Under the pieces are notes generated by a model. That model was not told the origin of the DNA. It made no database searches and saw nothing but the letters and a program-made list of their open reading frames with translations. The translations under genes were made by a program, and so were the position numbers. 64,000 nucleotides of DNA from Escherichia coli (GTDB taxonomy: Bacteria > Pseudomonadota > Gammaproteobacteria > Enterobacterales > Enterobacteriaceae): NCBI RefSeq assembly GCF_046105845.1, contig NZ_CP151004.1. One strand, written 5' to 3'. Of this stretch, positions 1,025 through 58,921 are shown one piece after another. The stretch's first letter is position 1. Each line of letters starts with the position of its first letter.

Positions 1025-4000
1025 ACATATTCACGCTTTCTCTCGGTCTGGCCGTCATGCCGATGGTCGAGGCAGCACCAACCGCTCAGCAACAGTTGCT
1101 GGAGCAAGTTCGGTTAGGCGAAGCGACCCATCGTGAAGACCTGGTGCAACAGTCGTTGTATCGTCTGGAACTTATTGATCCGAATAACCCGGACGTCGTT
1201 GCCGCCCGTTTCCGTTCTCTGTTACGTCAGGGCGATATTGATGGCGCGCAAAAACAGCTCGATCGGCTGTCGCAGTTAGCGCCGAGTTCAAATGCGTATA
1301 AATCGTCGCGGACCACAATGTTGCTTTCCACGCCGGATGGTCGTCAGGCACTGCAACAGGCAAGATTGCAGGCGACGACTGGTCATGCAGAAGAAGCTGT
1401 GGCGAGTTACAACAAACTGTTCAACGGTGCGCCGCCGGAAGGTGACATTGCCGTCGAGTACTGGAGTACGGTGGCGAAAATTCCGGCTCGCCGTGGCGAA
1501 GCGATTAATCAGCTAAAACGCATTAATGCGGATACGCCGGGCAATACGGGCCTGCAAAACAATCTGGCGCTATTGCTGTTTAGTAGCGATCGCCGTGACG
1601 AAGGCTTTGCCGTCCTGGAGCAGATGGCGAAATCGAACGCCGGGCGCGAAGGAGCCTCTAAAATCTGGTACGGGCAGATTAAAGATATGCCCGTCAGCGA
1701 TGCCAGTGTGTCGGCGCTGAAAAAATATCTCTCGATCTTTAGTGATGGCGATAGCGTAGCTGCGGCGCAATCGCAACTGGCAGAACAGCAAAAACAGCTG
1801 GCCGACCCTGCTTTCCGCGCTCGTGCGCAAGGTTTAGCGGCGGTGGACTCTGGTATGGCGGGTAAAGCCATTCCCGAACTACAACAGGCGGTGCGGGCGA
1901 ACCCGAAAGACAGTGAGGCACTGGGGGCGCTGGGCCAGGCGTATTCTCAGAAAGGCGATCGCGCCAATGCGGTGGCGAATCTGGAAAAAGCCCTCGCCCT
2001 GGATCCGCACAGCAGCAACAACGACAAATGGAACAGTCTCCTGAAAGTAAACCGCTACTGGCTGGCGATCCAGCAGGGCGATGCTGCGCTGAAAGCCAAT
2101 AATCCTGACCGGGCAGAACGCCTGTTCCAGCAGGCGCGCAATGTCGATAACACCGACAGCTATGCAGTGCTGGGGCTGGGTGATGTGGCGATGGCGCGCA
2201 AAGATTACCCTGCAGCCGGACGTTATTATCAGCAGACGCTACGGATGGACAGTAGCAACACTAACGCCGTGCGCGGTCTGGCGAATCTTTATCGCCAGCA
2301 ATCGCCGGAAAAAGCCGAAGCGTTTATCGCCTCGCTCTCTGCCAGCCAGCGGCGCAGCATTGATGATATCGAACGCAGCCTGCAAAATGACCGTTTGTCA
2401 CAGCAGGCAGAGGCACTGGAAAAACAGGGCAAATGGGCGCAGGCAGCAGCACTTCAGCGCCAGCGACTGGCGCTGGACCCCGGCAGTGTATGGATTACTT
2501 ACCGACTTTCACAGGATCTCTGGCAGGCCGGACAACGCAGCCAGGCCGATACGTTAATGCGTAATCTGGCGCAGCAGAAGCCGAACGACCCGGAGCAGGT
2601 TTACGCTTACGGGCTGTATCTCTCTGGCCATGACCAGGACAGAGCGGCGCTGGCGCATATCAACAGCCTGCCGCGCGCGCAGTGGAACAGCAATATTCAG
2701 GAGCTGGTTAATCGACTGCAAAGCGATCAGGTACTGGAAACCGCTAATCGCCTGCGAGAAAGCGGCAAAGAAGCTGAAGCGGAAGCGATGCTGCGCCAGC
2801 AACCACCTTCCACGCGCATAGACCTCACGCTGGCTGACTGGGCGCAACAACGACGTGATTACACCGCCGCCCGCACTGCATATCAGAATGTCCTGACGCG
2901 GGAGCCAGCTAACGCCGATGCCATTCTTGGTCTGACGGAAGTGGATATTGCTGCCGGTGACAAAGCGGCGGCACGTAGCCAGCTGGCGAAGCTGCCTGCC
3001 ACCAATAACGCCTCGCTGAACACTCAGCGGCGCGTGGCGCTGGCACAGGCGCAGCTTGGCGATACCGCAGCGGCGCAGCAGACGTTTAATAAGTTGATCC
3101 CGCAGGCAAAATCTCAGCCACCGTCGATGGAAAGCGCGATGGTGCTGCGCGACGGTGCGAAGTTTGAAGCGCAGGCGGGCGATCCAACGCAGGCGCTGGA
3201 AACCTACAAAGACGCCATGGTTGCATCCGGTGTGACCACGATGCGTCCACAGGATAACGACACCTTTACCCGACTGACCCGCAATGACGAGAAAGATGAC
3301 TGGCTGAAACGCGGCGTGCGCAGCGATGCGGCGGACCTCTATCGTCAGCAGGATCTTAACGTCACCCTCGAGCACGATTACTGGGGTTCGAGCGGCACCG
3401 GTGGTTACTCCGATCTGAAAGCGCACACCACCATGTTGCAGGTGGATGCGCCGTACTCTGACGGGCGGATGTTCTTTCGCAGTGATTTCGTCAATATGAA
3501 CGTCGGCAGTTTCTCCACTAATGCCGATGGCAAATGGGATGACAACTGGGGCACCTGTACATTACAGGACTGTAGCGGCAACCGCAGCCAGTCGGATTCC
3601 GGTGCCAGCGTGGCGGTCGGTTGGCGAAATGACGTCTGGAGCTGGGATATCGGCACCACGCCGATGGGCTTCAACGTGGTGGATGTGGTCGGCGGCATCA
3701 GTTACAGCGATGATATCGGGCCGCTGGGTTACACCGTTAACGCCCATCGTCGGCCCATCTCCAGTTCTTTGCTGGCCTTTGGTGGGCAAAAAGACTCTCC
3801 GAGCAATACCGGGAAAAAATGGGGCGGCGTGCGTGCCGACGGCGTGGGGCTAAGCCTGAGCTACGATAAAGGTGAAGCAAACGGCGTCTGGGCATCGCTT
3901 AGCGGTGACCAGTTAACCGGTAAAAATGTCGAAGATAACTGGCGCGTGCGCTGGATGACGGGCTATTACTATAAGATCATCAACCAGAATAATCGCCGTG

Positions 4001-11758: not shown

Positions 11759-11827
11759 GCTGCCTCATTTTCCGCCTGGCTGGACTATCTTTAGGACTGG
11801 CACAGGAAGAATATGAGGAAGCGAACG

Positions 11828-13888
11828 ATGAGCAAGGCAGGCAAAATAACCGCTGCGATTTCAGGGGCTTTCTTGTTGTTGATTGTCGTGGCGATCATTT
11901 TGATTGCAACTTTTGATTGGAATCGACTCAAACCGACCATCAACCAGAAAGTCTCTGCGGAGTTGAATCGTCCGTTCGCTATCCGTGGCGATCTGGGCGT
12001 CGTGTGGGAGCGACAAAAACAAGAAACTGGCTGGCGCAGCTGGGTGCCGTGGCCCCATATACACGCGGAAGACATCATTCTCGGCAACCCACCAGATATT
12101 CCCGAAGTCACAATGGTGCATTTGCCACGCGTAGAGGCAACACTGGCCCCGCTGGCGCTGCTGACCAAAACGGTCTGGTTGCCGTGGATCAAGCTCGAAA
12201 AGCCCGACGCACGCCTGATTCGCCTCTCAGAAAAGAACAATAACTGGACCTTTAATCTCGCCAACGATGATAACAAAGACGCGACTGCAAAGCCGTCGGC
12301 ATGGTCGTTTCGGCTGGATAATATTCTGTTCGATCAAGGGCGGATCGCCATTGATGACAAAGTAAGCAAAGCGGATCTGGAAATTTTTGTCGATCCGTTA
12401 GGCAAGGCGCTGCCGTTCAGCGAAGTTACTGGATCGAAAGGTAAAGCGGATAAAGAAAAGGTGGGTGATTACGTTTTTGGCCTGAAGGCGCAGGGACGTT
12501 ATAACGGTGAACCGCTCACGGGTACGGGAAAAATAGGCGGTATGCTGGCGCTGCGTGGCGAAGGGACGCCGTTTCCGGTACAGGCTGATTTCCGCTCTGG
12601 TAACACCCGTGTTGCTTTTGATGGCGTTGTGAATGACCCAATGAAGATGGGTGGTGTCGATTTACGGCTTAAATTTTCTGGCGATTCGCTGGGTGATCTC
12701 TATGAACTGACGGGCGTTCTGCTGCCCGATACCCCGCCGTTTGAAACGGATGGTCGGCTGGTAGCGAAAATCGACACTGAAAAATCGTCGGTCTTTGATT
12801 ATCGCGGTTTTAATGGGCGCATTGGCGATAGCGATATCCACGGTTCTCTGGTCTACACCACCGGCAAGCCACGACCAAAACTAGAAGGTGATGTCGAGTC
12901 GCGGCAATTGCGGCTGGCGGACCTGGGACCGTTGATTGGCGTTGATTCCGGGAAAGGAGCTGAAAAGTCGAAACGGTCTGAACAGAAGAAGGGTGAAAAA
13001 AGCATTCAGCCTGCGGGCAAAGTGCTGCCTTATGACCGCTTCGAAACCGATAAATGGGACGTCATGGATGCCGATGTTCACTTCAAAGGGCGGCGCATTG
13101 AGCATGGCAGTAGCCTGCCGATTAGCGATCTTTCTACTCATATCATCCTCAAAAATGCTGACCTGCGCCTGCAACCGCTGAAATTTGGCATGGCGGGCGG
13201 CAGCATTGCGGCGAATATTCATCTGGAAGGTGATAAAAAACCGATGCAGGGGCGGGCAGATATTCAGGCCCGTCGGCTGAAACTGAAAGAACTGATGCCC
13301 GATGTGGAACTGATGCAGAAGACGCTGGGGGAAATGAACGGTGACGCGGAACTACGCGGTAGCGGTAACTCGGTGGCGGCGCTTCTAGGCAACAGTAACG
13401 GCAACCTGAAACTGTTGATGAATGACGGGCTGGTGAGCCGCAACCTGATGGAGATTGTCGGGCTGAATGTCGGTAACTACATTGTCGGTGCGATATTTGG
13501 TGACGATGAGGTGCGGGTGAACTGTGCGGCGGCGAATCTGGATATTGCCAACGGCGTGGCGCGTCCGCAGATTTTTGCTTTTGATACTGAGAATGCGTTG
13601 ATCAATGTTACCGGCACGGCAAGTTTTGCTTCGGAGCAACTGGATTTGACTATCGATCCAGAAAGTAAAGGGATTCGGATTATCACGCTGCGTTCGCCGC
13701 TGTATGTGCGTGGGACGTTTAAAAATCCGCAGGCTGGGGTAAAAGCCGGACCGTTGATTGCTCGCGGAGCCGTCGCGGCGGCACTGGCAACGCTGGTAAC
13801 ACCAGCGGCGGCGTTACTGGCGCTGATCTCACCTTCCGAAGGGGAGGCTAATCAGTGTCGGACGATTTTGTCGCAGATGAAGAAGTGA
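11828..13888 (+). CDS. yhjG: AsmA-family inner-membrane-anchored protein YhjG
   Basis: About 686 aa, N-terminal TM anchor (ITAAISGAFLLLIVVAIILIATF) then large soluble region; alternative upstream ATG at 11813. Confidence 0.88.
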   Translation: MSKAGKITAAISGAFLLLIVVAIILIATFDWNRLKPTINQKVSAELNRPFAIRGDLGVVWERQKQETGWRSWVPWPHIHAEDIILGNPPDIPEVTMVHLPRVEATLAPLALLTKTVWLPWIKLEKPDARLIRLSEKNNNWTFNLANDDNKDATAKPSAWSFRLDNILFDQGRIAIDDKVSKADLEIFVDPLGKALPFSEVTGSKGKADKEKVGDYVFGLKAQGRYNGEPLTGTGKIGGMLALRGEGTPFPVQADFRSGNTRVAFDGVVNDPMKMGGVDLRLKFSGDSLGDLYELTGVLLPDTPPFETDGRLVAKIDTEKSSVFDYRGFNGRIGDSDIHGSLVYTTGKPRPKLEGDVESRQLRLADLGPLIGVDSGKGAEKSKRSEQKKGEKSIQPAGKVLPYDRFETDKWDVMDADVHFKGRRIEHGSSLPISDLSTHIILKNADLRLQPLKFGMAGGSIAANIHLEGDKKPMQGRADIQARRLKLKELMPDVELMQKTLGEMNGDAELRGSGNSVAALLGNSNGNLKLLMNDGLVSRNLMEIVGLNVGNYIVGAIFGDDEVRVNCAAANLDIANGVARPQIFAFDTENALINVTGTASFASEQLDLTIDPESKGIRIITLRSPLYVRGTFKNPQAGVKAGPLIARGAVAAALATLVTPAAALLALISPSEGEANQCRTILSQMKK

Positions 13889-13930
13889 TGAGGTTGGATT
13901 GTGTTTGTTGGTGAGTTCGGGAGCAGCGTG

Positions 13931-14107
13931 TTCCCCTCACCCTAACCCTCTCCCCAAAGGGGCGAGGGGACTGTTTTGTGCGTGTTGAAACAACGAGTAC
14001 CGCTTTTCCGTTCACTTTCTGGGGGGAGGGCTGTTATGTTCGCGATATAACATCTCGCTCCGCTTTTCTCCCTCTCCCTTTCAGGGAGAGGGCCGGGGTG
14101 AGGGTGG
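13931..14107. repeat. Pair of inverted GC-rich palindromic intergenic repeat units (REP/BIME-like; exact family not determined)
   Basis: Unit 1 at 13931-13972 (ttcccctcaccctaaccctctccccaaaggggcgagggg) and an inverted unit at 14068-14107 (ctccctctccctttcagggagagggccggggtgagggtgg). Confidence 0.7.
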
Positions 14108-14122
14108 CAGCCCGCACGATAC

Positions 14123-15445
14123 TTACAACGACTGATGTCGTGTCTCATGGGTCAGCAGCAGGGCGATTAAGGTCAAGCCAGCCATCGCCGCCAGATATAA
14201 CCCCACCGCACCTAACCCGTAGTTAGTCTGCAACCAGGCTGCGATATACGGCGCAACGGAAGCCCCGAGAATCGACGCTACGTTGTAAGAGAACGATGCT
14301 CCGGTGTAACGCACTTCTGTCGGGAACAGCTCTGGTAACAGCGCGCCCATCGGCCCGAAGGTCAGTCCCATCAGACTTAACCCCAGCAGCAGGAAGGCAA
14401 AAACCAGAATCGGGTTGCCAGAACCGAGCAGAGGGTTAAAGGCGAACAGCGCGAACAGGATGATCAGCGTGGTGATGATTACCATGCTTTTACGGCGACC
14501 AAAGGCATCAGCCAGTAATCCGGCGACTGGCACCATCACGCCAAAACCAATCACTGCCATCATCAGCATCCACAATACTTCGTTACGCGGCAGGCCAAGC
14601 CCAACTGGCGCGGCGGCGGTACTAAAGGTCATAGAGTAGACCGTCATGATGTAAAACAGCGTATAGGTTGCCAGCATGATGAAGGTACCGAGCACCGTGA
14701 CGCGTACGTGTTTGGTCAGCAGCGTACCCAGCGGGATCTTCACCTGCTTTTTCGCTTTAGCGACTTTCTCAAACACCGGCGACTCATGCAGCGACACGCG
14801 AACATACAGGCCGATAATGACCAGCACCGCCGAGAAGATAAACGGCACGCGCCAACCCCAGCTCATAAACTGCTCGTCGGTCAGTAGCCAGGAAAGCAGT
14901 AAGAAAGTGCCGTTGGCAAAGAAGAAGCCAATCGGTGCGCCCAGCTGCGGGAAGGAGCCGTACAATGCACGTTTGCGCGGTGGGGCGTTTTCAGTCGCCA
15001 GCAGCGCCGCGCCGCCCCATTCACCGCCTAAGCCCAGACCCTGACCAAATCGAGCCAGTGCCAGCAGCAGCGGGGCGAAAATACCAATCGTGGCATAGCC
15101 CGGCAGCAGACCAATCACCACGGTCGAAATCCCCATCGTTAGCAACGAGGCGACCAGCGTCGCTTTACGCCCAACACGATCGCCAAAATGACCAAAGACG
15201 GCAGAGCCAATAGGGCGCGCGACGAAGGCGATGGCGAAAGTGGCAAGCGACTGTAGCGTTGCTGCCGTAGGATCGCCCTGCGGGAAGAAGATATGCGGAA
15301 ACACAATAACGGCCGCAGTGGCGTAAATATAAAAGTCGAAGAACTCAATGGCCGTGCCAATGAGAGAGGCGACAAGGACTTTATTACGCGAGTTGATCGG
15401 CGTGTATTCTTGCTCGTGGTCGAGTGTTGTGGCTGTTGCTTGCAT
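14123..15445 (-). CDS. yhjE: MFS metabolite:H+ symporter-family transporter YhjE
   Basis: 440-aa ORF with about 12 hydrophobic segments and an MFS-like GxxxD/RxGRR region (FGHFGDRVGRK). Confidence 0.92.
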   Translation of the reverse strand: MQATATTLDHEQEYTPINSRNKVLVASLIGTAIEFFDFYIYATAAVIVFPHIFFPQGDPTAATLQSLATFAIAFVARPIGSAVFGHFGDRVGRKATLVASLLTMGISTVVIGLLPGYATIGIFAPLLLALARFGQGLGLGGEWGGAALLATENAPPRKRALYGSFPQLGAPIGFFFANGTFLLLSWLLTDEQFMSWGWRVPFIFSAVLVIIGLYVRVSLHESPVFEKVAKAKKQVKIPLGTLLTKHVRVTVLGTFIMLATYTLFYIMTVYSMTFSTAAAPVGLGLPRNEVLWMLMMAVIGFGVMVPVAGLLADAFGRRKSMVIITTLIILFALFAFNPLLGSGNPILVFAFLLLGLSLMGLTFGPMGALLPELFPTEVRYTGASFSYNVASILGASVAPYIAAWLQTNYGLGAVGLYLAAMAGLTLIALLLTHETRHQSL

Positions 15446-15760
15446 AATCTTTTCTTATTTTTTGGCTAACGAATAGCCATATTACGCACAGCAAAAGTGA
15501 TATTTCAATGTGTAACAAATCGCGGAAATAGTCAAAAATCAGGCAAAAAGGGGATAATGTTTAGGCCAGTGATTTTTCTTCTATGAAATGCTTCACATAA
15601 TTTTATAAATGGTGGATAAAACTGGTTTCAGGTTAAATAAAAGTTACCAACTGGATTTATATGCTGGGGTTATGAGTTGGAATGAAATTGTTTGCTCCTG
15701 AAGAGATGTAGTTTCAGGTGGTTATGTGCATGTCATTGCCTGGTCTCTGGCTGGCTTGTA

Positions 15761-15803
15761 CCCCCTCACCCTAATCCTCTCCCCGAAGGGGCGAGGGGAT
15801 CGA
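15761..15803. repeat. Third copy of the GC-rich palindromic repeat unit
   Basis: ccccctcaccctaatcctctccccgaaggggcgaggggatcg, same orientation as the unit at 13931. Confidence 0.7.
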
Positions 15804-15836
15804 CCGTGCGTTTATCAGGCATTATAAACCAATGAA

Positions 15837-16850
15837 TTACCGCTGCGTTTTCCCCGGCATTCGCGGGTCGTCTTTATATTCGGCGGTGGCAATCCACGCC
15901 GCGCAAAACAGCGTCAAACGGGCGAAGAAGTAGAAAAACGCCATCAGCCCCAGCACGGAACCAAATGCTGCGCCAGAGGGGGATTTCATCAGCGATGGCA
16001 GGGTGTAGGTCATCACGATTTTAATCACTTCAAAACCAATCGCAGCCAGAAATGTTCCGCGAATCAGGGCTTTTTTGCGCGGACGGTGGCGCGGTAACCG
16101 CCAGAAGATCCAGAAGAAAAGCAGATAGTTGGCGAAGATGGAAATCGCCAGGCCAATCAACCGCCACGTCGGTTTCAGCCACTCAATGCTGTTCAGGTGC
16201 AGGGCGCTAATAATCATTTGCTGCGCCGAACCGGCAACCGAGGTGATCGAAAGCGTCACAATCAGTGCAATCAACAAACCAATCAGCGAAATAAAATCAC
16301 GCAGATATTTTACCCAGAACTTCTCCTGATCTTGCGGCGAGCGTTCCCAGACATCGCGTGACTGGGCGCGAATCGCTTCACGCAGGTTACCCATCCAGTT
16401 GATGCCGGAATAAAGCGCCACCGCCAGGCCGACAAGCCCTACGGTAGTACGCTGCTGAACGGCGGTGTTAATGGTGTTTTTCAACGTGGCGGCTAGCGTC
16501 GGATCGCTGATGTTTTGCAGAATTTTGTCGAAGATATCCTGTAGCAACATCGGATGGGAGGCCAGCACAAAGCCCCCTGCGGCAAACGACACCATCAAAA
16601 TCGGGATCATCGATAAAAATGAGAAATAGGTGATAGCCGCACCAAACTGGTTACCCAGCCGATCGTTAAAGCGCTCTGTTGCGCGAATCAGGTGCGCAAT
16701 AACCGGTTGGCGTTGGACTTTTTCGGCAGTGGTGGTGACGGTTTCCAGCGCCTGGCTAACTTTGCCGCCTTTCTCGCTATTATCCAACTGCTTAATCGGC
16801 TCGTGCTCCAGATCCTGGGTGGGACGTTTGATCTCGTTTTCCTGCGTCAT
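15837..16850 (-). CDS. yhjD: YihY/BrkB-family inner membrane protein YhjD
   Basis: 337-aa ORF, polar N-terminus followed by multiple TM segments. Confidence 0.9.
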   Translation of the reverse strand: MTQENEIKRPTQDLEHEPIKQLDNSEKGGKVSQALETVTTTAEKVQRQPVIAHLIRATERFNDRLGNQFGAAITYFSFLSMIPILMVSFAAGGFVLASHPMLLQDIFDKILQNISDPTLAATLKNTINTAVQQRTTVGLVGLAVALYSGINWMGNLREAIRAQSRDVWERSPQDQEKFWVKYLRDFISLIGLLIALIVTLSITSVAGSAQQMIISALHLNSIEWLKPTWRLIGLAISIFANYLLFFWIFWRLPRHRPRKKALIRGTFLAAIGFEVIKIVMTYTLPSLMKSPSGAAFGSVLGLMAFFYFFARLTLFCAAWIATAEYKDDPRMPGKTQR

Positions 16851-18969: not shown

Positions 18970-20649
<1,680 letters not shown>

Positions 20650-29822: not shown

Positions 29823-30980
29823 TTATTGTTTCGATTCGGTGCTGGCGTTTTCCTGGCTGGAGGAAATTGCTCGTGCTTTGATACCCGGACGAATGCGTTG
29901 CAAACCGGAAACGATCACCCGATCGCCAGCCTGCAAGCCAGAGGTTACAACCCACTGGTCGCCGATGGCTTTGCTGGCTTCGATTTCGCGTAGCTGCACG
30001 ACATTGTCTTTATCCAGAATGAGCGCCGTTGCTTTACCCTGGGCGTTGTGGGTGACGCCTTCCTGCGGCACCAGTAATACATTCTGGCGGCTACCTTCAT
30101 CCACTAATGCCGTAACGTACATGCCAGGCAGCAAGTCACCATTTGGGTTGGGGAAAATCGCCCGTAACGTCACGGAGCCCGTGGTTTCATCCACCGTCGG
30201 GTCGGAGAATTTCAGCGTGCCGGTCTGGCTGTAACGTTTACCATTTTCCAGATTGAGCTGTACTGGCGTACTGCCCTGAACCTGTTTGATTTGCCCACTG
30301 GCGACCTCTTCTTTCATACGCAAGAAATCCTGCACCGACTGCGTGAGATCGACATAAATCGGGTCCAGACGTTGTACGGTAACCAGCGAATCTGCCTGAT
30401 TAGCGGTAACGAGTGCGCCGACGGTCACCGACGATTTCCCGCTGACGCCCGTAATCGGCGAGGTGACATTCGCGTATTGCAAATTGATCGTCGCCTGTTC
30501 AACAGCCGCTTTGGCGACGGTGACATTGGCTTCTGCTTCATTCAGCTGGGTGCGCGCGGTGTCGTAATCCTGACGGCTAACGTAGTTGGTCTTCAGCAAC
30601 GATGCCTGGCGGTTAAAGGTGATGCGGGCATTGCTGGCGGTAGAGAGCGCTTTCGCCAGCGTGCCTTTGGCGGAGTTCAGCTCGGCCTGTAAAGGTGCAG
30701 GATCAATCTGATACAGCGAATCGCCCTGGTTCACTTTATCGCCTTCGATAAAGTTGCGTTTAATGATAATACCGCCCACCTGGGGACGTATCTCGGCAAC
30801 TTCATAAGGAACGGTTCTACCGGGCAATTCGCTCAATACATTGACCGAACCGGGGGAGAGTGTGACGACACCGACCTCAGGCGTCATGGCGGCAGCGTTT
30901 TCCGCCGATTTGTCATCGCAGGCGGTGAGCATCGCGCCGCAGAATAACAACGGTATTAACAGCTTTCTTCTTCTGTTCAT
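29823..30980 (-). CDS. mdtE: RND efflux membrane fusion (periplasmic adaptor) lipoprotein MdtE
   Basis: 385-aa ORF with lipobox (LTAC); directly upstream of mdtF. Confidence 0.95.
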   Translation of the reverse strand: MNRRRKLLIPLLFCGAMLTACDDKSAENAAAMTPEVGVVTLSPGSVNVLSELPGRTVPYEVAEIRPQVGGIIIKRNFIEGDKVNQGDSLYQIDPAPLQAELNSAKGTLAKALSTASNARITFNRQASLLKTNYVSRQDYDTARTQLNEAEANVTVAKAAVEQATINLQYANVTSPITGVSGKSSVTVGALVTANQADSLVTVQRLDPIYVDLTQSVQDFLRMKEEVASGQIKQVQGSTPVQLNLENGKRYSQTGTLKFSDPTVDETTGSVTLRAIFPNPNGDLLPGMYVTALVDEGSRQNVLLVPQEGVTHNAQGKATALILDKDNVVQLREIEASKAIGDQWVVTSGLQAGDRVIVSGLQRIRPGIKARAISSSQENASTESKQ

Positions 30981-31318
30981 TTTAGTCCCTGAAAATTCTT
31001 GAGAAATAACGGTTCTTTAAATTGCGCGCGAGGAGAGATATGAGGGATTTACAGACCAGCGGCGTAGTGGGGTTGTCAGCCAGTAAGGTGGGATACAGGC
31101 ATAGTGATCGACATGGTGAGGTCAACGACAAAAAAAATGTTGCCGTTCTGCCAACAGTTCCTGCCAGCATTCGGGCAACGAAGGGTTCTACTGGTGGATA
31201 CATATACCAGGGGAATAAAGTCGTTTTAACCTCTCCTTTAGTAATCACCGGGGGTAATGAAATCAGCATCTGCATCCCTCGTCATGCCAGCCATCAATTT
31301 CAGTTGCTTATGTCCTGA

Positions 31319-31846
31319 CTAAAAATAAGATGTGATACCCAGGGTGACGATGTCGCTCATACGTCTTAGTTTCAGCTTGTACATAATGTTGAATTTCTGA
31401 ATCTTTAATGTTTGTTGCGAAATATTGAGCGTCGACGTGATATTGCTTTCATTTTTATTTTTCAGAATCAGTTGCATAATTTTGAACTGATTATGTGAAA
31501 AACATAATTGTGAATTCTTATGGGGCAAGTGTTTACCATAAGTAATCTCAAGAAGATTTTTGATACTTTCTTTGCGGCTGACAAAATAAATAGGCGCTTT
31601 AGCTTTTAGTTTACTGATGTGATAAGGTGCCAAAACAATAATTCTCTCGGCATCTAATTTCTCCAGAAATTTAATCGCTTCTTCATCAAGGATATGATTG
31701 TGATAGGTATCAATGATAACCTTGAAGGGTTTATTACCTACTTTTTTGATCTCTGACAGGGAATTGATTTTTATCATTTCGTGATTATCTTTCAACTGCC
31801 AAAAGCCCTGTAAAAGAAAAGAATCTTTCGTCATGAGAAAAATCAT
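31319..31846 (-). CDS. gadE: LuxR-family acid-resistance master regulator GadE
   Basis: 175-aa sequence from internal Met (MIFLMTKDSFLLQGFWQL...); the ORF extends 26 codons upstream; very AT-rich. Confidence 0.92.
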   Translation of the reverse strand: MIFLMTKDSFLLQGFWQLKDNHEMIKINSLSEIKKVGNKPFKVIIDTYHNHILDEEAIKFLEKLDAERIIVLAPYHISKLKAKAPIYFVSRKESIKNLLEITYGKHLPHKNSQLCFSHNQFKIMQLILKNKNESNITSTLNISQQTLKIQKFNIMYKLKLRRMSDIVTLGITSYF

Positions 31847-32644
31847 AACTTGCTCCTTAGCCGTTATCGTTTCGAACATGTCATCCTTTTCATTATTTAC
31901 ATCCTTGTCCGAATCGTTGTTCAATATAGTAAACGCCTATAAGAACTTTGCCCTTCGTGAACTAATACGTCTATTAACACTAATCAATGCTTCAGATTTA
32001 TCCATCACGCACTCCATATATTGATCCTAAGTAAAATTCCTGGTTGTTATCAGTTTGTAAACAGCAAACAAAAACTTAACGTTTGCGGATTACTGCCCAA
32101 GAATAAGTTATCAATAACCAGTTTGTGATCTCTGAAGAATATTACTAAAGTTAAAATGTAATCCGATTTAAATATCGAGTCTCCTTGTTTCGACTTAAGC
32201 TGGCAATTGGATTGCCAGCTTTCTTTTAACGCATTGAAATTACCTGAGTAAATAACTCATTCATGTCTTCAGGTTTTTATATAGCGTCTGGAGACACGGA
32301 TATTTATGCAATGTAATCAACGCCAGTTGCAAAAAAATGAACCCGGATTACTTATTTAACCGCCCATAGCATCAACGCTTACGGAACTCTTTGTTCACTT
32401 TCCCACAGCACTTTTAAAACATTAAACCTGACTACGGAAAATATCAGCCATGATAATGTTTGAAATGGCTAATTTGCCATGGAATGAAAAAAATTAGATG
32501 AAATTCAGTAGGTTGAAATAATCATCAGCAGGTAATTATTTCAATGATAGTGCGCAATTGATCTACAACGCTGTGTAGCGGAGAGAGTATTAATCGGATC
32601 ATAGTCACATCAAGTGACTATGATCCGGGTGACAACAGGGATAA

Positions 32645-33217
32645 TTATTGCTGCTTAACGAACAAACTGGCGAAGCTGAACAGGCTGGCGGCGCTAAATA
32701 TCAGTTCAATACCCACCAGTGTGGAAACCAAAGTTACAGACACCATCGGCGTTGCACCAAGGAATATCCATGCAATGACGATATCCAGCACACCAATAAC
32801 GAGCTGTAGCCAGCTGCCTTTCATTGAACGCTGACGATACCAACTCATCAGGCGAATAACCCCTGCAACACAGAACAAACCGGCAATAAATGCCGCAATG
32901 GCAAAAATGCCCAGCTCCGGTGCGCGGATGAAGAAATAGCCGATCAATAAATAGGCGACTGCGACGAGGAAACCGGATAATACAGGCCAGAAATTATGAC
33001 TGCGGTTGCTGAATAATCCAACAATAAGCGCTATGCCCGAGCAGATTAATAATGCACCCACTACCGTGCTTAAAATATCGCCAGAGACGAACGGGAAACT
33101 GATACACAGCAACCCGACGATAAACAGTAGCACGGCAATAAACTGGATTGCTCTGCGATGCTTTTTCAGCATCTCCAGATCAAACTTCAAAATTGTTGCC
33201 TTATCTATATATAACAT
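32645..33217 (-). CDS. hdeD: Acid-resistance membrane protein HdeD
   Basis: 190-aa ORF with about 6 TM segments, divergent from hdeAB. Confidence 0.93.
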   Translation of the reverse strand: MLYIDKATILKFDLEMLKKHRRAIQFIAVLLFIVGLLCISFPFVSGDILSTVVGALLICSGIALIVGLFSNRSHNFWPVLSGFLVAVAYLLIGYFFIRAPELGIFAIAAFIAGLFCVAGVIRLMSWYRQRSMKGSWLQLVIGVLDIVIAWIFLGATPMVSVTLVSTLVGIELIFSAASLFSFASLFVKQQ

Positions 33218-33471
33218 AGAACCACCCTATAAAATTAAGAAGAAAATCCCCTGCTATCAATCTATGCCAAAAACGCGTCTAAGAATGCAGTCGATTTAAT
33301 AAAAATTTCCTAATTACAGTATCTGATGCATCTGTAACTCATTGTATTGAAATAAAAATATCTGATTTTGATATTTTCCATCAACATGACATATACAGAA
33401 AACCAGGTTATAACCTCAGTGTCGAAATTGATTCGTGACGGCTCTTTCACTTTATAGTTGAGGATATTACG

Positions 33472-33804
33472 ATGAAAAAAGTATTAGGCGTTATTCTTGG
33501 TGGTCTGCTTCTTCTGCCAGTTGTGAGCAATGCAGCGGATGCGCAAAAAGCAGCTGATAACAAAAAACCGGTCAACTCCTGGACCTGTGAAGATTTCCTG
33601 GCTGTGGACGAATCCTTCCAGCCAACTGCAGTTGGTTTTGCTGAAGCGCTGAACAACAAAGATAAACCAGAAGATGCGGTTTTAGATGTTCAGGGTATTG
33701 CAACCGTAACCCCAGCTATCGTTCAGGCTTGTACTCAGGATAAACAAGCCAACTTTAAAGATAAAGTTAAAGGCGAGTGGGACAAAATTAAGAAAGATAT
33801 GTAA
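33472..33804 (+). CDS. hdeA: Periplasmic acid-stress chaperone HdeA
   Basis: 110-aa ORF with signal peptide (MKKVLGVILGGLLLLPVVSNA). Confidence 0.95.
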   Translation: MKKVLGVILGGLLLLPVVSNAADAQKAADNKKPVNSWTCEDFLAVDESFQPTAVGFAEALNNKDKPEDAVLDVQGIATVTPAIVQACTQDKQANFKDKVKGEWDKIKKDM

Positions 33805-33919
33805 TTCCGGGAATGCGTTACATCGTACTTCCTTGCATATTGAACAGGCCGGAATATCTTCTTTAAAAGCAGCTATTCCGCCTGTTCATATATAATCTCT
33901 ATATTGAATGGGTTACAAA

Positions 33920-34246
33920 ATGAATATTTCATCTCTCCGTAAAGCGTTTATTTTTATGGGCGCTGTAGCGGCTTTGTCACTGGTGAACGCACAATCTGCG
34001 CTGGCAGCCAATGAATCCGCTAAAGATATTACCTGCCAGGAATTTATTGATCTGAATCCAAAAGCAATGACACCGGTTGCATGGTGGATGCTGCATGAAG
34101 AGACAGTATATAAAGGTGGCGATACCGTTACTTTAAATGAAACCGATCTCACTCAAATTCCTAAAGTGATCGAATACTGCAAGAAAAACCCGCAGAAAAA
34201 TTTGTATACCTTCAAAAATCAAGCATCTAATGACTTGCCGAATTAA
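33920..34246 (+). CDS. hdeB: Periplasmic acid-stress chaperone HdeB
   Basis: 108-aa sequence from internal Met (MNISSLRKAFIFMGAVAALSLVNAQSALA...). Confidence 0.93.
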   Translation: MNISSLRKAFIFMGAVAALSLVNAQSALAANESAKDITCQEFIDLNPKAMTPVAWWMLHEETVYKGGDTVTLNETDLTQIPKVIEYCKKNPQKNLYTFKNQASNDLPN

Positions 34247-34258
34247 TGAGGTACAAGT

Positions 34259-34306
34259 AAAAAGGAGTAGCAAGTTGAGCCATCTTGCTGCTCCTTTTTG
34301 CATTTT
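34259..34306 (+). terminator. Hairpin plus T-tract after hdeB (partial terminator ahead of yhiD)
   Basis: aaaaggagtagcaag / cttgctgctccttttt stem followed by ttttgcattttt. Confidence 0.6.
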
Positions 34307-34309
34307 TAT

Positions 34310-34957
34310 ATGACAGCAGAATTTATTATACGTCTTATACTCGCAGCAATTGCCTGTGGCGCTATTGGCATGGAAAGGCAAATACGCGGCAAAGGAGCAG
34401 GGTTACGCACACATGTATTAATTGGCATGGGAAGCGCCCTGTTTATGATTGTTTCGAAATATGGTTTTGCTGACGTACTGTCTTTAGATCACGTCGGACT
34501 GGACCCCAGCCGTATTGCTGCTCAGGTGGTGACGGGCGTCGGGTTTATCGGTGCAGGTAACATTCTCGTTCGTAACCAAAATATTGTAGGTCTGACGACG
34601 GCAGCGGATATCTGGGTGACCGCCGCCATAGGTATGGTTATTGGCAGTGGTATGTACGAACTGGGTATTTATGGTTCAGTGATGACCTTGCTGGTGCTGG
34701 AAGTCTTCCATCAATTAACCTTCCGCCTGATGAACAAAAATTACCATTTACAGCTGACATTAGTGAACGGTAATACGGTATCAATGCTCGACTGGTTTAA
34801 GCAGCAAAAAATAAAAACGGATTTAGTTTCGTTGCAGGAAAATGAAGATCATGAAGTGGTCGCCATTGATATCCAGCTTCATGCCACGACGTCGATAGAA
34901 GATCTGTTGCGATTATTAAAAGGTATGGCAGGGGTGAAAGGCGTTTCAATTAGCTAA
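34310..34957 (+). CDS. yhiD: MgtC/SapB-family inner membrane protein YhiD
   Basis: 215-aa sequence from ATG (MTAEFIIRLILAAIACGAIGMERQ...); the ORF track starts at an upstream TTG. Confidence 0.9.
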   Translation: MTAEFIIRLILAAIACGAIGMERQIRGKGAGLRTHVLIGMGSALFMIVSKYGFADVLSLDHVGLDPSRIAAQVVTGVGFIGAGNILVRNQNIVGLTTAADIWVTAAIGMVIGSGMYELGIYGSVMTLLVLEVFHQLTFRLMNKNYHLQLTLVNGNTVSMLDWFKQQKIKTDLVSLQENEDHEVVAIDIQLHATTSIEDLLRLLKGMAGVKGVSIS

Positions 34958-35008
34958 TCTGTATAGTTATTTATTCGCAGGAGTACCAAAGCGGTACTCC
35001 TGTTGGTT

Positions 35009-35779
35009 TTAATGATCGAGGACGATCAGTGGTGAATGGTTGGCAGGATCTTTAAGTACGGTAATATCCGCGCCGTAGAGCATTGTCAGCGCCTGCTGTG
35101 TCAATACATCCTGCGGTTTACCATTTGCGATAACCTTTCCTTTTTGCATTAATACAATACGGTCTGCATAACGTGCGGCAAGATTTAGATCGTGCAATAC
35201 GCAGCAAACATTGAATTGCCGTTCGTGAACTAACTGGCGTAATAAACGGAACAAGTGCTGCTGATGGTGAATATCCAGCGCCGAAGTTGGTTCATCAAGA
35301 AATAACCATTTCGGTGAGGGAGTAGGTTCCCAGAGTTGCACCAGCAGGCGCGCTAATTGCACGCGCTGTTGTTCACCACCGGATAATTGCCGATAGTCGC
35401 GGTTTGCTAACGCCTGACAGTCACATAACGCCATTATTTGTGCTGTTTCATTATCCTGATTACCAGTACGATGCGGATGCCGACCCATCTGGATAACTTC
35501 TTGTACGCTGAATGGAAACGCCATGTGGCTATTTTGACGCATCACGGCCCGGTGTTTCGCCAGTTCAGTAATCGACCATTCATTTAATGGCTTATTAAAC
35601 AACCGACATTCGCCGCTATCAGGTTGAAGATAGCCGGTTAACTGGCGAAGCAGCGTAGATTTTCCCGCACCATTAGGGCCGAGAATGGCAACAATTTCCC
35701 CACCGGGAAAAGTCAGCGAGACATTATCAGTCAGACGCCGCCCCTGAAGGCTATAAACCAGATTCTGGGCGCTGATCAT
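35009..35779 (-). CDS. chuV: Haemin ABC transporter ATP-binding protein (ChuV/HmuV)
   Basis: Walker [13 protein letters not shown] signature LSGGEQQR, Walker [12 protein letters not shown]; start at internal Met (MISAQNL) overlapping the chuU stop as ATGA. Confidence 0.9.
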
Positions 35780-36768
35780 GTGATCCTCCGGTTGCGCAGA
35801 ATCAACCACATAAAATAAGGACCACCAAGCAGGCTGGTTAATAATCCCACGGGCATTTCTGCTGGCTGTACCAGCGTGCGGGCAAGCGTGTCTGCCATCA
35901 GCAATAAACAGGCTCCGGCGAGGGCGGAACAAGGGATTAGCCAGCGGTGATTTGCTCCGGTAGTCATGCGAATCAGATGCGGGATTACCAGGCCAATAAA
36001 GCCGATAATGCCGCTTACCGATACGGCAGCACCAACGAGCAGTGAGCTCACTAACAGTAATTGCTGGCGTTTACGCTTAACGTTCACGCCGAGGTAATGG
36101 GCTTCTTCATCACCGAGCTGCAGTAAATTCAGCGTTCCGGCGAGATAAGTTGTTGCGATAATGGCCGGTAGGATGAATGAACTGGCAACCAATAACGTCG
36201 GCCATTGCGCCTGTCCAAGATTGCCCATCATCCACAATGTGAGTTGTCGTAGCTGCTGCTCATCGCCGATATAGCTCAGGATGCCGATCGCTGCGCCGCA
36301 CAGGGCATTGATGGCGATACCGGCGAGTAATAATTGCATCATGCTGCCATCGCGATGGCGCTGCGTGATGAGAAAAATGATGGTGCAGACCACTAAACTT
36401 CCGGCAATGGCAAACACCATTTGCTCATAGAGCACCAGCACCACTGGGAAGGAGAAGGGCAGCACAATAGCAACGCCAACCATTAATGCAGAACCGCTAC
36501 TGACGCCGAGTAATCCAGGGTCAGCCATTGGGTTGCGAAAAAGCCCCTGCATAATTACCCCGGCGGTTGCCAACGCTGCACCTACCAGCACCGCCAGCAA
36601 AACCCGTGGTAGACGAATATTGAGCCAGATATCGCGGTATTCCTCATCAAAAAGGGCATCAAAACTGATCTTTAACGCTCCCTGACTGGCACCGAACAGC
36701 ACTAGGGCAAGCAATAATAGTGATAGCCCCATAAAGACCCTGGCGGATGAAAATGAATCCTTGAGCAC
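35776..36768 (-). CDS. chuU: Haemin ABC transporter permease (FecCD family) ChuU
   Basis: 330-aa polytopic ORF; 2-nt overlap into chuV. Confidence 0.9.
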
Positions 36769-47322: not shown

Positions 47323-48324
47323 TTAAAATAGCATTTGAGTCAAATAGCCCATCAAGATAGCCATACCTAAGATAACCGTCAGGAATGCAGCTATCATCGG
47401 CATTCTGAACATTGATTTAAGTAATATCACTTCCGTCAGGCTTGCTCCGGCACTGCCGATGATTAATGCCATTAATGCTCCCAGCCCCATTCCTTTTGTC
47501 ATCAGAACAGATGCCAGAGGGATAACCGCCTCTGCCCGGATATACAGCGGAATTCCGACAACGGCGCTCAATGGGATGGCGAAGGGATTATCTGCCCCTG
47601 CATGAGCGGCAATCCACTCTGAGGGAATAAAGCCATAAATAAAAGAGCCTATTAATACCCCTAACAAAAGATATGGCAGTACATCTTTAAACTGTTGCAA
47701 CGCATCTTTGGTGGCTAGTTTTATGGGATTAATACTTACCACAGCTTTGGTACTGCAACAGTTTACTACAGGTTTCTCAATGGCTTTAGCCGCTGGACTA
47801 CAGCAACTCACTTTTATTGGCGTATATGTCGTCCCCGGCGAAGTTTTGGCTGGAGCACAACAATTTGCTGATGAGCTTTTACTGGCAATGATATGACGTT
47901 CAAATCCCAGGGAATCCAGGATAATACTGGCAAGTACGGAGACGCCGGCGGCGATAATCGCGTACAACAAGGTAACTTTCCAGCCAAAGGTCACCCACAT
48001 TAACCCGACGATAATGGGATTAAGTAATGGGGAAACAAATAAAAAAGTGAGGGTCGGACCAAACCCGGCTTTCGCTGATAACAATCCACGTAACATGGGG
48101 ATTGTCGAGCAACTACAGAACGGGGTAACGGCTCCCAACAGAGCAGCCAGGAGATAACCTCTCCCTTTTCTGGCCCCCATCATCTGCTGGATTTTATGGT
48201 CTGGCACCTTTTGTCTTATCAGGCTGACACCGGCACTAATCACTATAAACAGCAAAGAAAGCTCGACGGCGAGAAACACAAACATCTCTGCGGCATCTTG
48301 CAGCATCGCAAGCCAACTACTCAT
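47323..48324 (-). CDS. Cys-rich polytopic permease (DUF318 / ArsP-like, TPFCSCS motif)
   Basis: Start taken at ATG 48324 (MSSWLAMLQ...), which has SD gagg; an alternative ATG lies at 48336. At least 8 hydrophobic segments, motif AVTPFCSCSTIPML, central loop with three CC pairs. Confidence 0.8.
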   Translation of the reverse strand: MSSWLAMLQDAAEMFVFLAVELSLLFIVISAGVSLIRQKVPDHKIQQMMGARKGRGYLLAALLGAVTPFCSCSTIPMLRGLLSAKAGFGPTLTFLFVSPLLNPIIVGLMWVTFGWKVTLLYAIIAAGVSVLASIILDSLGFERHIIASKSSSANCCAPAKTSPGTTYTPIKVSCCSPAAKAIEKPVVNCCSTKAVVSINPIKLATKDALQQFKDVLPYLLLGVLIGSFIYGFIPSEWIAAHAGADNPFAIPLSAVVGIPLYIRAEAVIPLASVLMTKGMGLGALMALIIGSAGASLTEVILLKSMFRMPMIAAFLTVILGMAILMGYLTQMLF

Positions 48325-48777: not shown

Positions 48778-48816
48778 TGTAGGTCGGATAAGACGCGTTA
48801 GCGTCGCATCCGACAT
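48778..48816. repeat. REP (repetitive extragenic palindrome) element
   Basis: tgtaggtcggataagacgcgttagcgtcgcatccgacat resembles canonical E. coli REP units (gccggataaggcg...cgcatccggc); lies between convergent genes. Confidence 0.6.
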
Positions 48817-58665: not shown

Positions 58666-58921
58666 ATTTATTAACCTTCCAATACCATCCTGAAAAGTAT
58701 GAACGCGTAAGGGATAACGCGCGAAAAAGTTTACATCTGTCAGAGATTCTTAATATTGATGCGGTGAATAGATTAATACACTATTACAACAGAAAATAAC
58801 CAGCTGATCACACTAATGATGGAAAATATGATGGTGTTAAATGTTGTATTGGTAGGGGATTTTGATTGCGTACGCAGACCGTAGGCCAGATAAGGTGTTT
58901 ACGCTGCAAGGTAACAAGGCG

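Follow-up and report, generated by a model that had tools for sequence, protein, structure and literature searches.

Repeat units on both sides of Escherichia coli yhjE match the known BoxC/PIT/TMECO family

Three short GC-rich repeat units lie around the transporter gene yhjE in a 64,000-nucleotide stretch of Escherichia coli DNA, hereafter the window. Judged by their sequence, they are members of an already known repeat family, described under the names BoxC, PIT and TMECO. It is very probable that they are ordinary members of this family, carrying no dedicated regulatory role at this locus and representing selfish or neutral, structure-prone DNA in which slippage would give rise to small insertions and deletions; the absence of a dedicated role, the selfish or neutral character and the slippage are the parts of this explanation that we infer. 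The main value of the analysis lies in the correct label, which is BoxC/PIT/TMECO and not REP, terminators or a device that removes yhjE, and no new annotation category is called for.

A 2.8-kb query around the units has a match in 5425 of the 5426 complete genomes of E. coli, which assigns this DNA to the E. coli chromosome. The genes were identified as open reading frames and named from the RefSeq annotation of the matching loci:

11813–13888, plus strand: yhjG (AsmA family)
14123–15445, minus strand: yhjE, an MFS transporter gene, the bracketed gene, itself outside the repeat family
15837–16850, minus strand: yhjD

The repeat units, with the strand that carries the G-rich sequence, are as follows:

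13929–13983 (36-nt core at about 13933–13969), minus strand: unit 1, BoxC/TMECO type A with one stem mismatch, an exact fit to the published pattern
14000–14033, plus strand: degenerate, type B-like remnant, CCGCTTTTCCGTTCACTTTCTGGGGGGAGGGCTG, read directly in the sequence
14060–14116 (core 14070–14105), plus strand: unit 2, BoxC/TMECO type B with a perfect stem of 9–10 bp, an exact fit to the published pattern
15758–15810 (core at about 15762–15798), minus strand: unit 3, BoxC/TMECO type A, slightly degenerate, one mismatch to the published pattern

The preliminary description of this DNA had reported three copies flanking yhjE, and all three are present where it placed them, with 0.00 expected in shuffled sequence. 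It had also put two copies upstream of the gene and one downstream, which is right in window coordinates and reversed in gene terms: since yhjE is encoded on the minus strand, the pair formed by units 1 and 2 is located 3' of the gene and unit 3 is located 5' of it. The pair occupies the spacer between the convergent genes yhjG and yhjE, past the yhjE stop codon; unit 1 begins 46 nt beyond the yhjG stop codon, and 17 nt separate the end of unit 2 from that of yhjE. Unit 3 follows the yhjD stop by 38 nt and precedes the yhjE start codon by about 320 nt, so that all three units stand less than 50 nt (17–46 nt) from a stop codon. Elsewhere in the window, the 30–36 kb region corresponds to the gadE–mdtE–hdeD area and is 99.6% identical to several strains.

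Each unit, read on its G-rich strand, consists of CCCTCNCCC, a loop of 3–6 nt, GGGNGAGGG, a loop of 3 nt, and a second GGGNGAGGG. The core of unit 1 reads CCCTCGCCCCTTTGGGGAGAGGGTTAGGGTGAGGGG on the minus strand and that of unit 2 reads CCCTCTCCCTTTCAGGGAGAGGGCCGGGGTGAGGGT on the plus strand, while unit 3 departs from the pattern in its second block, GGGAGAGGA. Blocks 1 and 2 can form a hairpin of 9–10 bp, interrupted by a G·A mismatch in units 1 and 3 and perfect in unit 2, and block 3 is mirror-related to block 2. Because of this third, mirror block, the word “palindromic”, which had been applied to the units, describes them only in part: it fits the hairpin of blocks 1 and 2, but the unit as a whole is no plain palindrome. 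Alignment with paralogous pairs at flgH-flgG, entC-fepB and rhaD-rhaA gives a conserved unit of about 55 nt, in agreement with the 56 bp given for BoxC (PMC2267715).

The relative orientations of the units had been read correctly from the sequence. Units 1 and 3, the outer copies, form a direct repeat (13933–13970 versus 15762–15799) in which 36 of 38 nt (95%) are identical, and unit 2 (14070–14104) is inverted with respect to both, with 80% complementarity over 35 nt. Units 1 and 2 thus constitute a divergent inverted pair, 100 nt apart. The remnant at 14000–14033 represents a fourth unit, in direct orientation with unit 2 at an offset of 60–62 nt, that fails the published BoxC pattern even in a relaxed version. 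Searching the 64-kb window with the 36-nt pattern at up to three mismatches returned two sites, and with the hairpin-core pattern three sites; shuffled sequences yielded an expectation of 0.00 in both cases.

BoxC, a dispersed, GC-rich intergenic repeat known from E. coli and from many other bacteria, is listed as a known E. coli family of 56 bp with 32 copies (PMC2267715). Maher’s group came upon it again as the PIT element, and Holder et al. 2015 (PMC4666352) renamed it TMECO; the latter paper is the basis for treating the three names as equivalent. The family literature includes Bergler 1992 and Bachellier 1999 (both cited through PMC2267715 and PMC4666352) and Hoyne and Maher 2000. The published pattern, 5'-CCCTCNCCC N3-6 GGGNGAGGG N3 GGGNGAGGG[GTC-]-3', was accompanied by a table of 23 K-12 copies (Table 1, PMC4666352). 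Units 1 and 2 fit this pattern exactly, with 0.00 fits expected by chance, and unit 3 fits it with one mismatch. In that table, K-12 TMECO numbers 7, 11 and 15 have exactly the sequence of unit 1, number 10 is 1 nt away from unit 2, and numbers 6, 7, 11 and 15 are each 2 nt away from unit 3. The second loop is TTA in unit 1, as in type A, and CCG in unit 2, as in type B; close inverted pairs were always of the A+B kind in the published survey (Holder et al., PMC4666352), and units 1 and 2 reproduce this pairing. Of the families that had been put forward as candidates (REP, BIME and boxC), boxC is therefore the right one, by pattern and by identity to K-12 copies, and the REP consensus is absent. 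We take the copy beside fabI (envM) to be the one at which BoxC was first described. The K-12 copy between fabI and ycjD (3706–3740 of the K-12 locus, minus strand) fits the pattern and is number 9 of Table 1. The yhjE locus is missing from the K-12 table because the K-12 spacers carry REP elements, and the available part of the supplementary text of Holder et al. (PMC4666352) contains neither yhjE, yhjG, yhjD nor the sequence of unit 2.

The proposed genome-wide count of the motif established that the units are far from single-copy. With a 49-nt unit as the query, matches came from 5425 of the 5426 complete E. coli genomes, at a median of 19 places per genome and at 35 at most, for a total of 96,148 places, 367 of them on plasmids. 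Among the matches listed, the best ones fall under no annotated feature. Copies are few, at only 1–4 places, in some strains, among them ATCC 25922, F11 and Nissle (EcN), and Holder et al. (PMC4666352) recorded only one motif in IHE3034.

Other families of elements were also considered. The REP tail CTTATC(C/A)GGCCTAC is absent from 13889–14122 and from 15709–15836, which rejects REP/BIME membership; the four REP-like matches in the window all fall outside both spacers, and the K-12 REPs found at both spacers do not align with the BoxC units. A consensus scan of both strands for intrinsic terminators revealed no terminator-like site at any unit, and no U-tract directly follows the stems. The sole match to an Rfam RNA family, IRES_Bag1 (E = 0.96), scores well below the gathering threshold and is at chance level.

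Structural work on the family provides a basis for considering what the units might form. A single-stranded oligonucleotide of the type A G-rich strand, with one mismatch, was shown by CD and NMR to fold into a hairpin joined by a third G-rich strand, a purine-motif intrastrand triplex that melts at approximately 70–82 °C and gives way to duplex when the complementary strand is present; the G-to-C mutant control of that oligonucleotide corresponds to the sequence of unit 1 (PMC4666352). In vivo DMS footprinting showed no protection, and a stable triplex was not detected (PMC4666352). In a set of 324 units drawn from five sources, 323 have T or A at the free position of block 3, and compensatory C-G pairs occur in blocks 1 and 2. 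At the level of primary sequence, the units obey the rules expected of a hairpin plus a third strand. Folding, which had been suggested as a check on the units, gave RNA hairpins of moderate stability (−20 to −35 kcal/mol in 61-nt windows), but the z-scores of RNA and DNA folds are unremarkable at −0.6 to −2.7 when computed with ViennaRNA, which cannot model triplexes. Competing hairpins appear in these folds, as either G-block is a possible partner for the C-block. That the relevant structure is instead a G-quadruplex is very improbable. Units 1 and 3 do fit the usual motif of four G-runs, as in the G-rich strand GGGG AGA GGG TTA GGG TGA GGGG, and the published CD spectra are similar to parallel-quadruplex spectra, as their authors note (Holder et al., PMC4666352). 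However, the 18 sharp imino signals in the NMR spectrum were read by the same authors as a triplex, and a quadruplex would need neither the conserved C-rich block nor its compensatory pairing with block 2.

The spacers that carry the units proved to be polymorphic across E. coli, and two intervals define the repeat-bearing alleles:

13889–14122, no strand assigned: yhjG-yhjE spacer, a polymorphic cassette in its repeat-pair allele of 234 bp, present at full length in 1620 of 5426 genomes (30%)
15709–15836, no strand assigned: variable distal part of the yhjD-yhjE spacer in its unit-3 allele, present in 599 of 5426 genomes (11%)

The left (yhjG-yhjE) spacer exists in at least four alleles: the 234-bp pair allele of the window; a derivative in strain VCSW7 that has lost 62 bp, with endpoints in the remnant at 14000–14033 and in unit 2; a REP/BIME allele in K-12, AR_0104 and Z0117EC0056; and, in the divergent strain TUM13773, a spacer of 40 bp that contains nothing but a perfect hairpin. 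In the right (yhjD-yhjE) spacer the unit-3 allele is set against REP alleles, and K-12 MG1655 has REP/BIME sequences instead of BoxC units in both spacers. The combinations of alleles were surveyed with a 2-kb query in 59 chromosomal rows sampled evenly down the ranking of matches:

query 1–2001, units in both spacers: 2 of 59 rows
query 1–1849, pair allele only: 16 of 59 rows
query 264–2001, unit-3 allele only: 5 of 59 rows
query 264–1849, neither, K-12-like: 36 of 59 rows

All four combinations thus occur among the 59 sampled rows, with units on both sides of yhjE in approximately 3% of genomes. This share is close to the product of the two allele frequencies, so that the bracketing of yhjE in the window is a coincidence of two independent spacer polymorphisms. 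The breakpoint in the right spacer, at query position 1849, corresponds to position 15708 of the window, and the allele breakpoints coincide with the stop codons of yhjG, yhjE and yhjD. The repeat-bearing alleles are replacements of whole spacers, with no clean insertion into a short allele, and alleles free of BoxC vary as well, through differences in REP copy number and an 18-nt difference in AR_0104.

The position of the units between yhjE and its neighbors had led to the proposal that they could act as substrates for recombination that deletes the gene (between direct repeats 1 and 3) or inverts it (between inverted repeats 2 and 3), a reading that we hold to be extremely improbable. It could draw on the 36 of 38 identical nucleotides shared by units 1 and 3 and on the inversion of unit 2 relative to both, on the published statistical association of the family with rearranged loci (PMC4666352), and on the existence of the 62-bp deletion between two nearby units. 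Yet the order yhjG-yhjE-yhjD is preserved colinearly in 5419 of the 5426 complete genomes, the balance consisting of six matching genomes with less than 80% coverage and one genome with no match; the comparison of strains that had been recommended brought no loss of yhjE to light in these 5419. A synthetic junction representing deletion between copies 1 and 3 was covered over at least 80% of its length in 0 of 5426 genomes, and one representing inversion between copies 2 and 3 was covered in 0 of 5426. The low frequency of genomes with units on both sides at once also argues against such events, as does the conclusion of Holder et al. (PMC4666352) that the main outcome is something other than large-scale recombination. 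The 62-bp internal deletion in VCSW7 is the sole rearrangement attributable to the units, so the suggestion that they serve as recombination sites survives on this small scale and not for larger events. Imperfect homology of 36–38 nt is also close to the lower limit for RecA-dependent exchange, which counts against deletion or inversion of yhjE. A role in the 3' untranslated regions, in which the units would end or protect transcripts of yhjG, yhjE and yhjD in the manner of REP, or would load Rho through C-rich RNA, is quite unlikely, though several observations are in keeping with it. All three units follow closely on a stop codon, their RNA hairpins are moderately stable, and REP, a known stabilizer of mRNA, holds the same positions in other strains. 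In addition, the pair allele lacks a perfect 14-bp hairpin, TAATTGCCGGATGTCTGACATCCGGCAATTA, that the left spacer has in its K-12-type and TUM13773 alleles, so that something else must define the 3' ends there. Against this role, the scans found neither a terminator-like site at the units nor a U-run directly after a stem, and the z-scores of the RNA folds reach no further than −0.6 to −2.6. The strands are inconsistent, since the repeats would be C-rich in the yhjG and yhjE transcripts and G-rich in the yhjD transcript, and members of the family are seen at entC-fepB, where the promoters diverge, and within operons at rhaD-rhaA and flgH-flgG. In earlier tests reported by Holder et al. (PMC4666352), Maher and colleagues found neither promoter nor terminator activity, and the published tests as given there show no positional trend. 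The terminator or mRNA-stabilizer function first suggested for the units is accordingly not borne out.

The dispersal of the family raises the alternative that the units, and especially their inverted pairs, are non-autonomous mobile elements of the MITE or REPIN kind, moved in trans by a putative enzyme that would recognize a folded single strand. We regard this as unlikely, although several observations speak for it. Copies are dispersed, at about 1–2 to 35 places per genome depending on lineage, and are found on plasmids at the 367 places noted above; their presence varies at orthologous sites, and pairs of units of about 55 nt, with their flanks conserved, turn up repeatedly at unrelated loci. 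The family also extends beyond E. coli: a scan of a species-genome collection, which covered four genomes and so indicates breadth rather than providing a taxonomic census, found in the DNA scanned at least 150 exact units in Mitsuaria chitosanitabida, at least 13 in a Methylomirabilota MAG and at least 3 in Ca. Contendobacter. In IMG/VR at least 146 units were found on at least 120 stretches with GC contents of 32–74%. Across E. coli, Mitsuaria, the Methylomirabilota MAG, Ca. Contendobacter and the IMG/VR contigs the three 9-mers hardly change, while the loops differ. In Mitsuaria, among the matches listed, units less than 300 bp apart form about 45 divergent doublets as against 2 convergent and 15 direct ones, a strong bias. 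Against mobility stand the absence of a target-site duplication or a clean pair of empty and filled sites, the alleles being whole-spacer replacements, as well as the variable spacing of the doublets and the stability of most loci across 56 strains (PMC4666352). A tblastn search with E. coli RayT of 1.07 Mb around the non-E. coli copies produced only chance matches (E above 3), and hence no RayT homologue, and the IMG/VR contigs may include host DNA. A fuller version of this proposal, which is less probable than mobility as such, holds that the units, particularly the divergent A+B doublets, form the termini of a non-autonomous element of the REPIN or MITE kind that would be moved or copied by a putative enzyme recognizing the fold of the G-rich strand, and that would compete with REP/BIME for the spacers that follow stop codons. 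At rhaD-rhaA one strain has a BoxC pair where K-12 has a REP cluster. If true, the proposal would explain why the 9-mers are almost the same in viral contigs and in distant bacteria, why doublets are favored, and why REP and BoxC alternate at three of three compared spacers.

The reading that we favor remains that of ordinary family members, selfish or neutral and prone to adopt structure, lying in permissive 3' spacers. When the DNA becomes transiently single-stranded during replication or repair, the units could fold, and folding would favor stalling of the polymerase and slippage between nearby units. Slippage of this kind may produce small insertions and deletions, of which the 62-bp deletion would be an example, and would leave yhjE neither lost nor inverted. 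Because the triplex went undetected in vivo, this structural route to instability is put forward as a deduction. Loci with the repeat have been found to vary more between strains than control spacers (PMC4666352). The link between repeats and variability may also run the opposite way, with these spacers tolerating any insert. Our literature search found no later functional work on BoxC, PIT or TMECO elements. The yhjE locus illustrates cleanly, in natural strains, the published association of the repeat with intergenic variability, with two independent spacer polymorphisms 1.6 kb apart, REP as the alternative occupant and one internal 62-bp deletion. Strains with differing alleles constitute ready-made material for studying the effects of the repeats on neighboring transcripts.

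With intrinsic (Rho-independent) terminators the yhjE units share a GC-rich stem-loop shortly past a stop codon, but BoxC has no U-tract. REP (PU, BIME) and BoxC are both short, GC-rich, hairpin-forming intergenic repeats that often occur as inverted pairs just after stop codons, and REP occupies the yhjG-yhjE, yhjD-yhjE and rhaD-rhaA spacers in other strains; however, the REP sequence is different and has no third mirror block, and REP possesses a cognate transposase (RayT) and known roles whereas BoxC has neither. Like REPIN and MITE doublets, BoxC units are dispersed in spacers as inverted doublets with a copy number that depends on lineage, but their spacing is variable and neither a target-site duplication nor an associated transposase was found. 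From the published BoxC/PIT/TMECO elements nothing essential separates the yhjE units: the locus is absent from the 23 K-12 sites, unit 3 is one base off the pattern and the fourth unit is a remnant, while the tripartite pattern, the A and B loops, the A+B pairing, the intergenic location and the copy number are alike, and the association of the family with intergenic polymorphism is seen at the yhjE locus as well.

BoxC units and REP/BIME elements were found to replace one another at the same place in all three of the spacers compared, with BoxC units present in some strains and REP/BIME in K-12. These spacers, two of them in the window and compared with the K-12 locus (L001), are as follows:

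13889-14122, window, yhjG-yhjE spacer, compared with L001
15709-15836, window, yhjD-yhjE spacer, compared with L001
rhaD-rhaA spacer, compared between L011 and L132

In the yhjD-yhjE spacer, alignment of the TMECO allele to part of the K-12 REP region persists until approximately position 15756. A pattern search of the window for REP-tail-like sequences returned four matches elsewhere, against 0.48 expected:

19813-19826, REP-tail-like match
48215-48228, REP-tail-like match
48779-48792, REP-tail-like match
58881-58894, REP-tail-like match

The yhjG-yhjE spacer is reduced to 40 bp in E. coli TUM13773, a lineage of 93.6% identity (L008, 640-720), where it contains one perfect hairpin, GCCGGATGTCTGACATCCGGC. 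This hairpin is retained in the K-12 allele but is wholly missing from the BoxC allele, and the 40-bp spacer may represent the unoccupied state of the site. The haplotype carried by the window around yhjE is rarer than its surroundings, since the best match to the yhjE region reaches only 98.6% identity, while the acid-fitness region at 30000-36000 (gadE, mdtE, hdeD, yhiD) is 99.6% identical to several E. coli strains.

BoxC pairs were also located at other E. coli loci:

L009, 1463-1668, flgH-flgG spacer of a second flagellar cluster
L010, 960-1179, K-12 spacer separating the divergent genes entC and fepB
L011, 961-1201, rhaD-rhaA spacer within the rhaBAD operon of one strain

Beyond the enterobacteria, exact copies of the TMECO pattern are very numerous among the matches listed, and one of the metagenome-assembled genomes (MAGs) carrying it is assigned outside the Proteobacteria. 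The non-enterobacterial carriers among these matches are:

L020-L131, Mitsuaria chitosanitabida
L012-L019, Methylomirabilota MAG JACPAT01
L027-L029, Candidatus Contendobacter MAG

The non-enterobacterial copies have nearly the same 9-mer blocks as those of E. coli, with differences in the loops, and the Mitsuaria units are strongly biased towards inverted doublets in divergent orientation. A stem variant carrying G at position 6 of block 1, which forms a G·A mismatch with block 2 and a G·T wobble with block 3, occurs in approximately 18-70% of units in E. coli, Mitsuaria, Contendobacter and viral contigs (all units collected); at the same position, a few viral units contain a compensatory C-G pair.

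Holder et al. (PMC4666352) reported that TMECO has no association with phages. In IMG/VR, the pattern was detected on putative viral contigs (L135-L254), which may include host flanks, with at least 146 units on at least 120 stretches; among the matches listed, the GC content of these stretches ranges from 32 to 74%.
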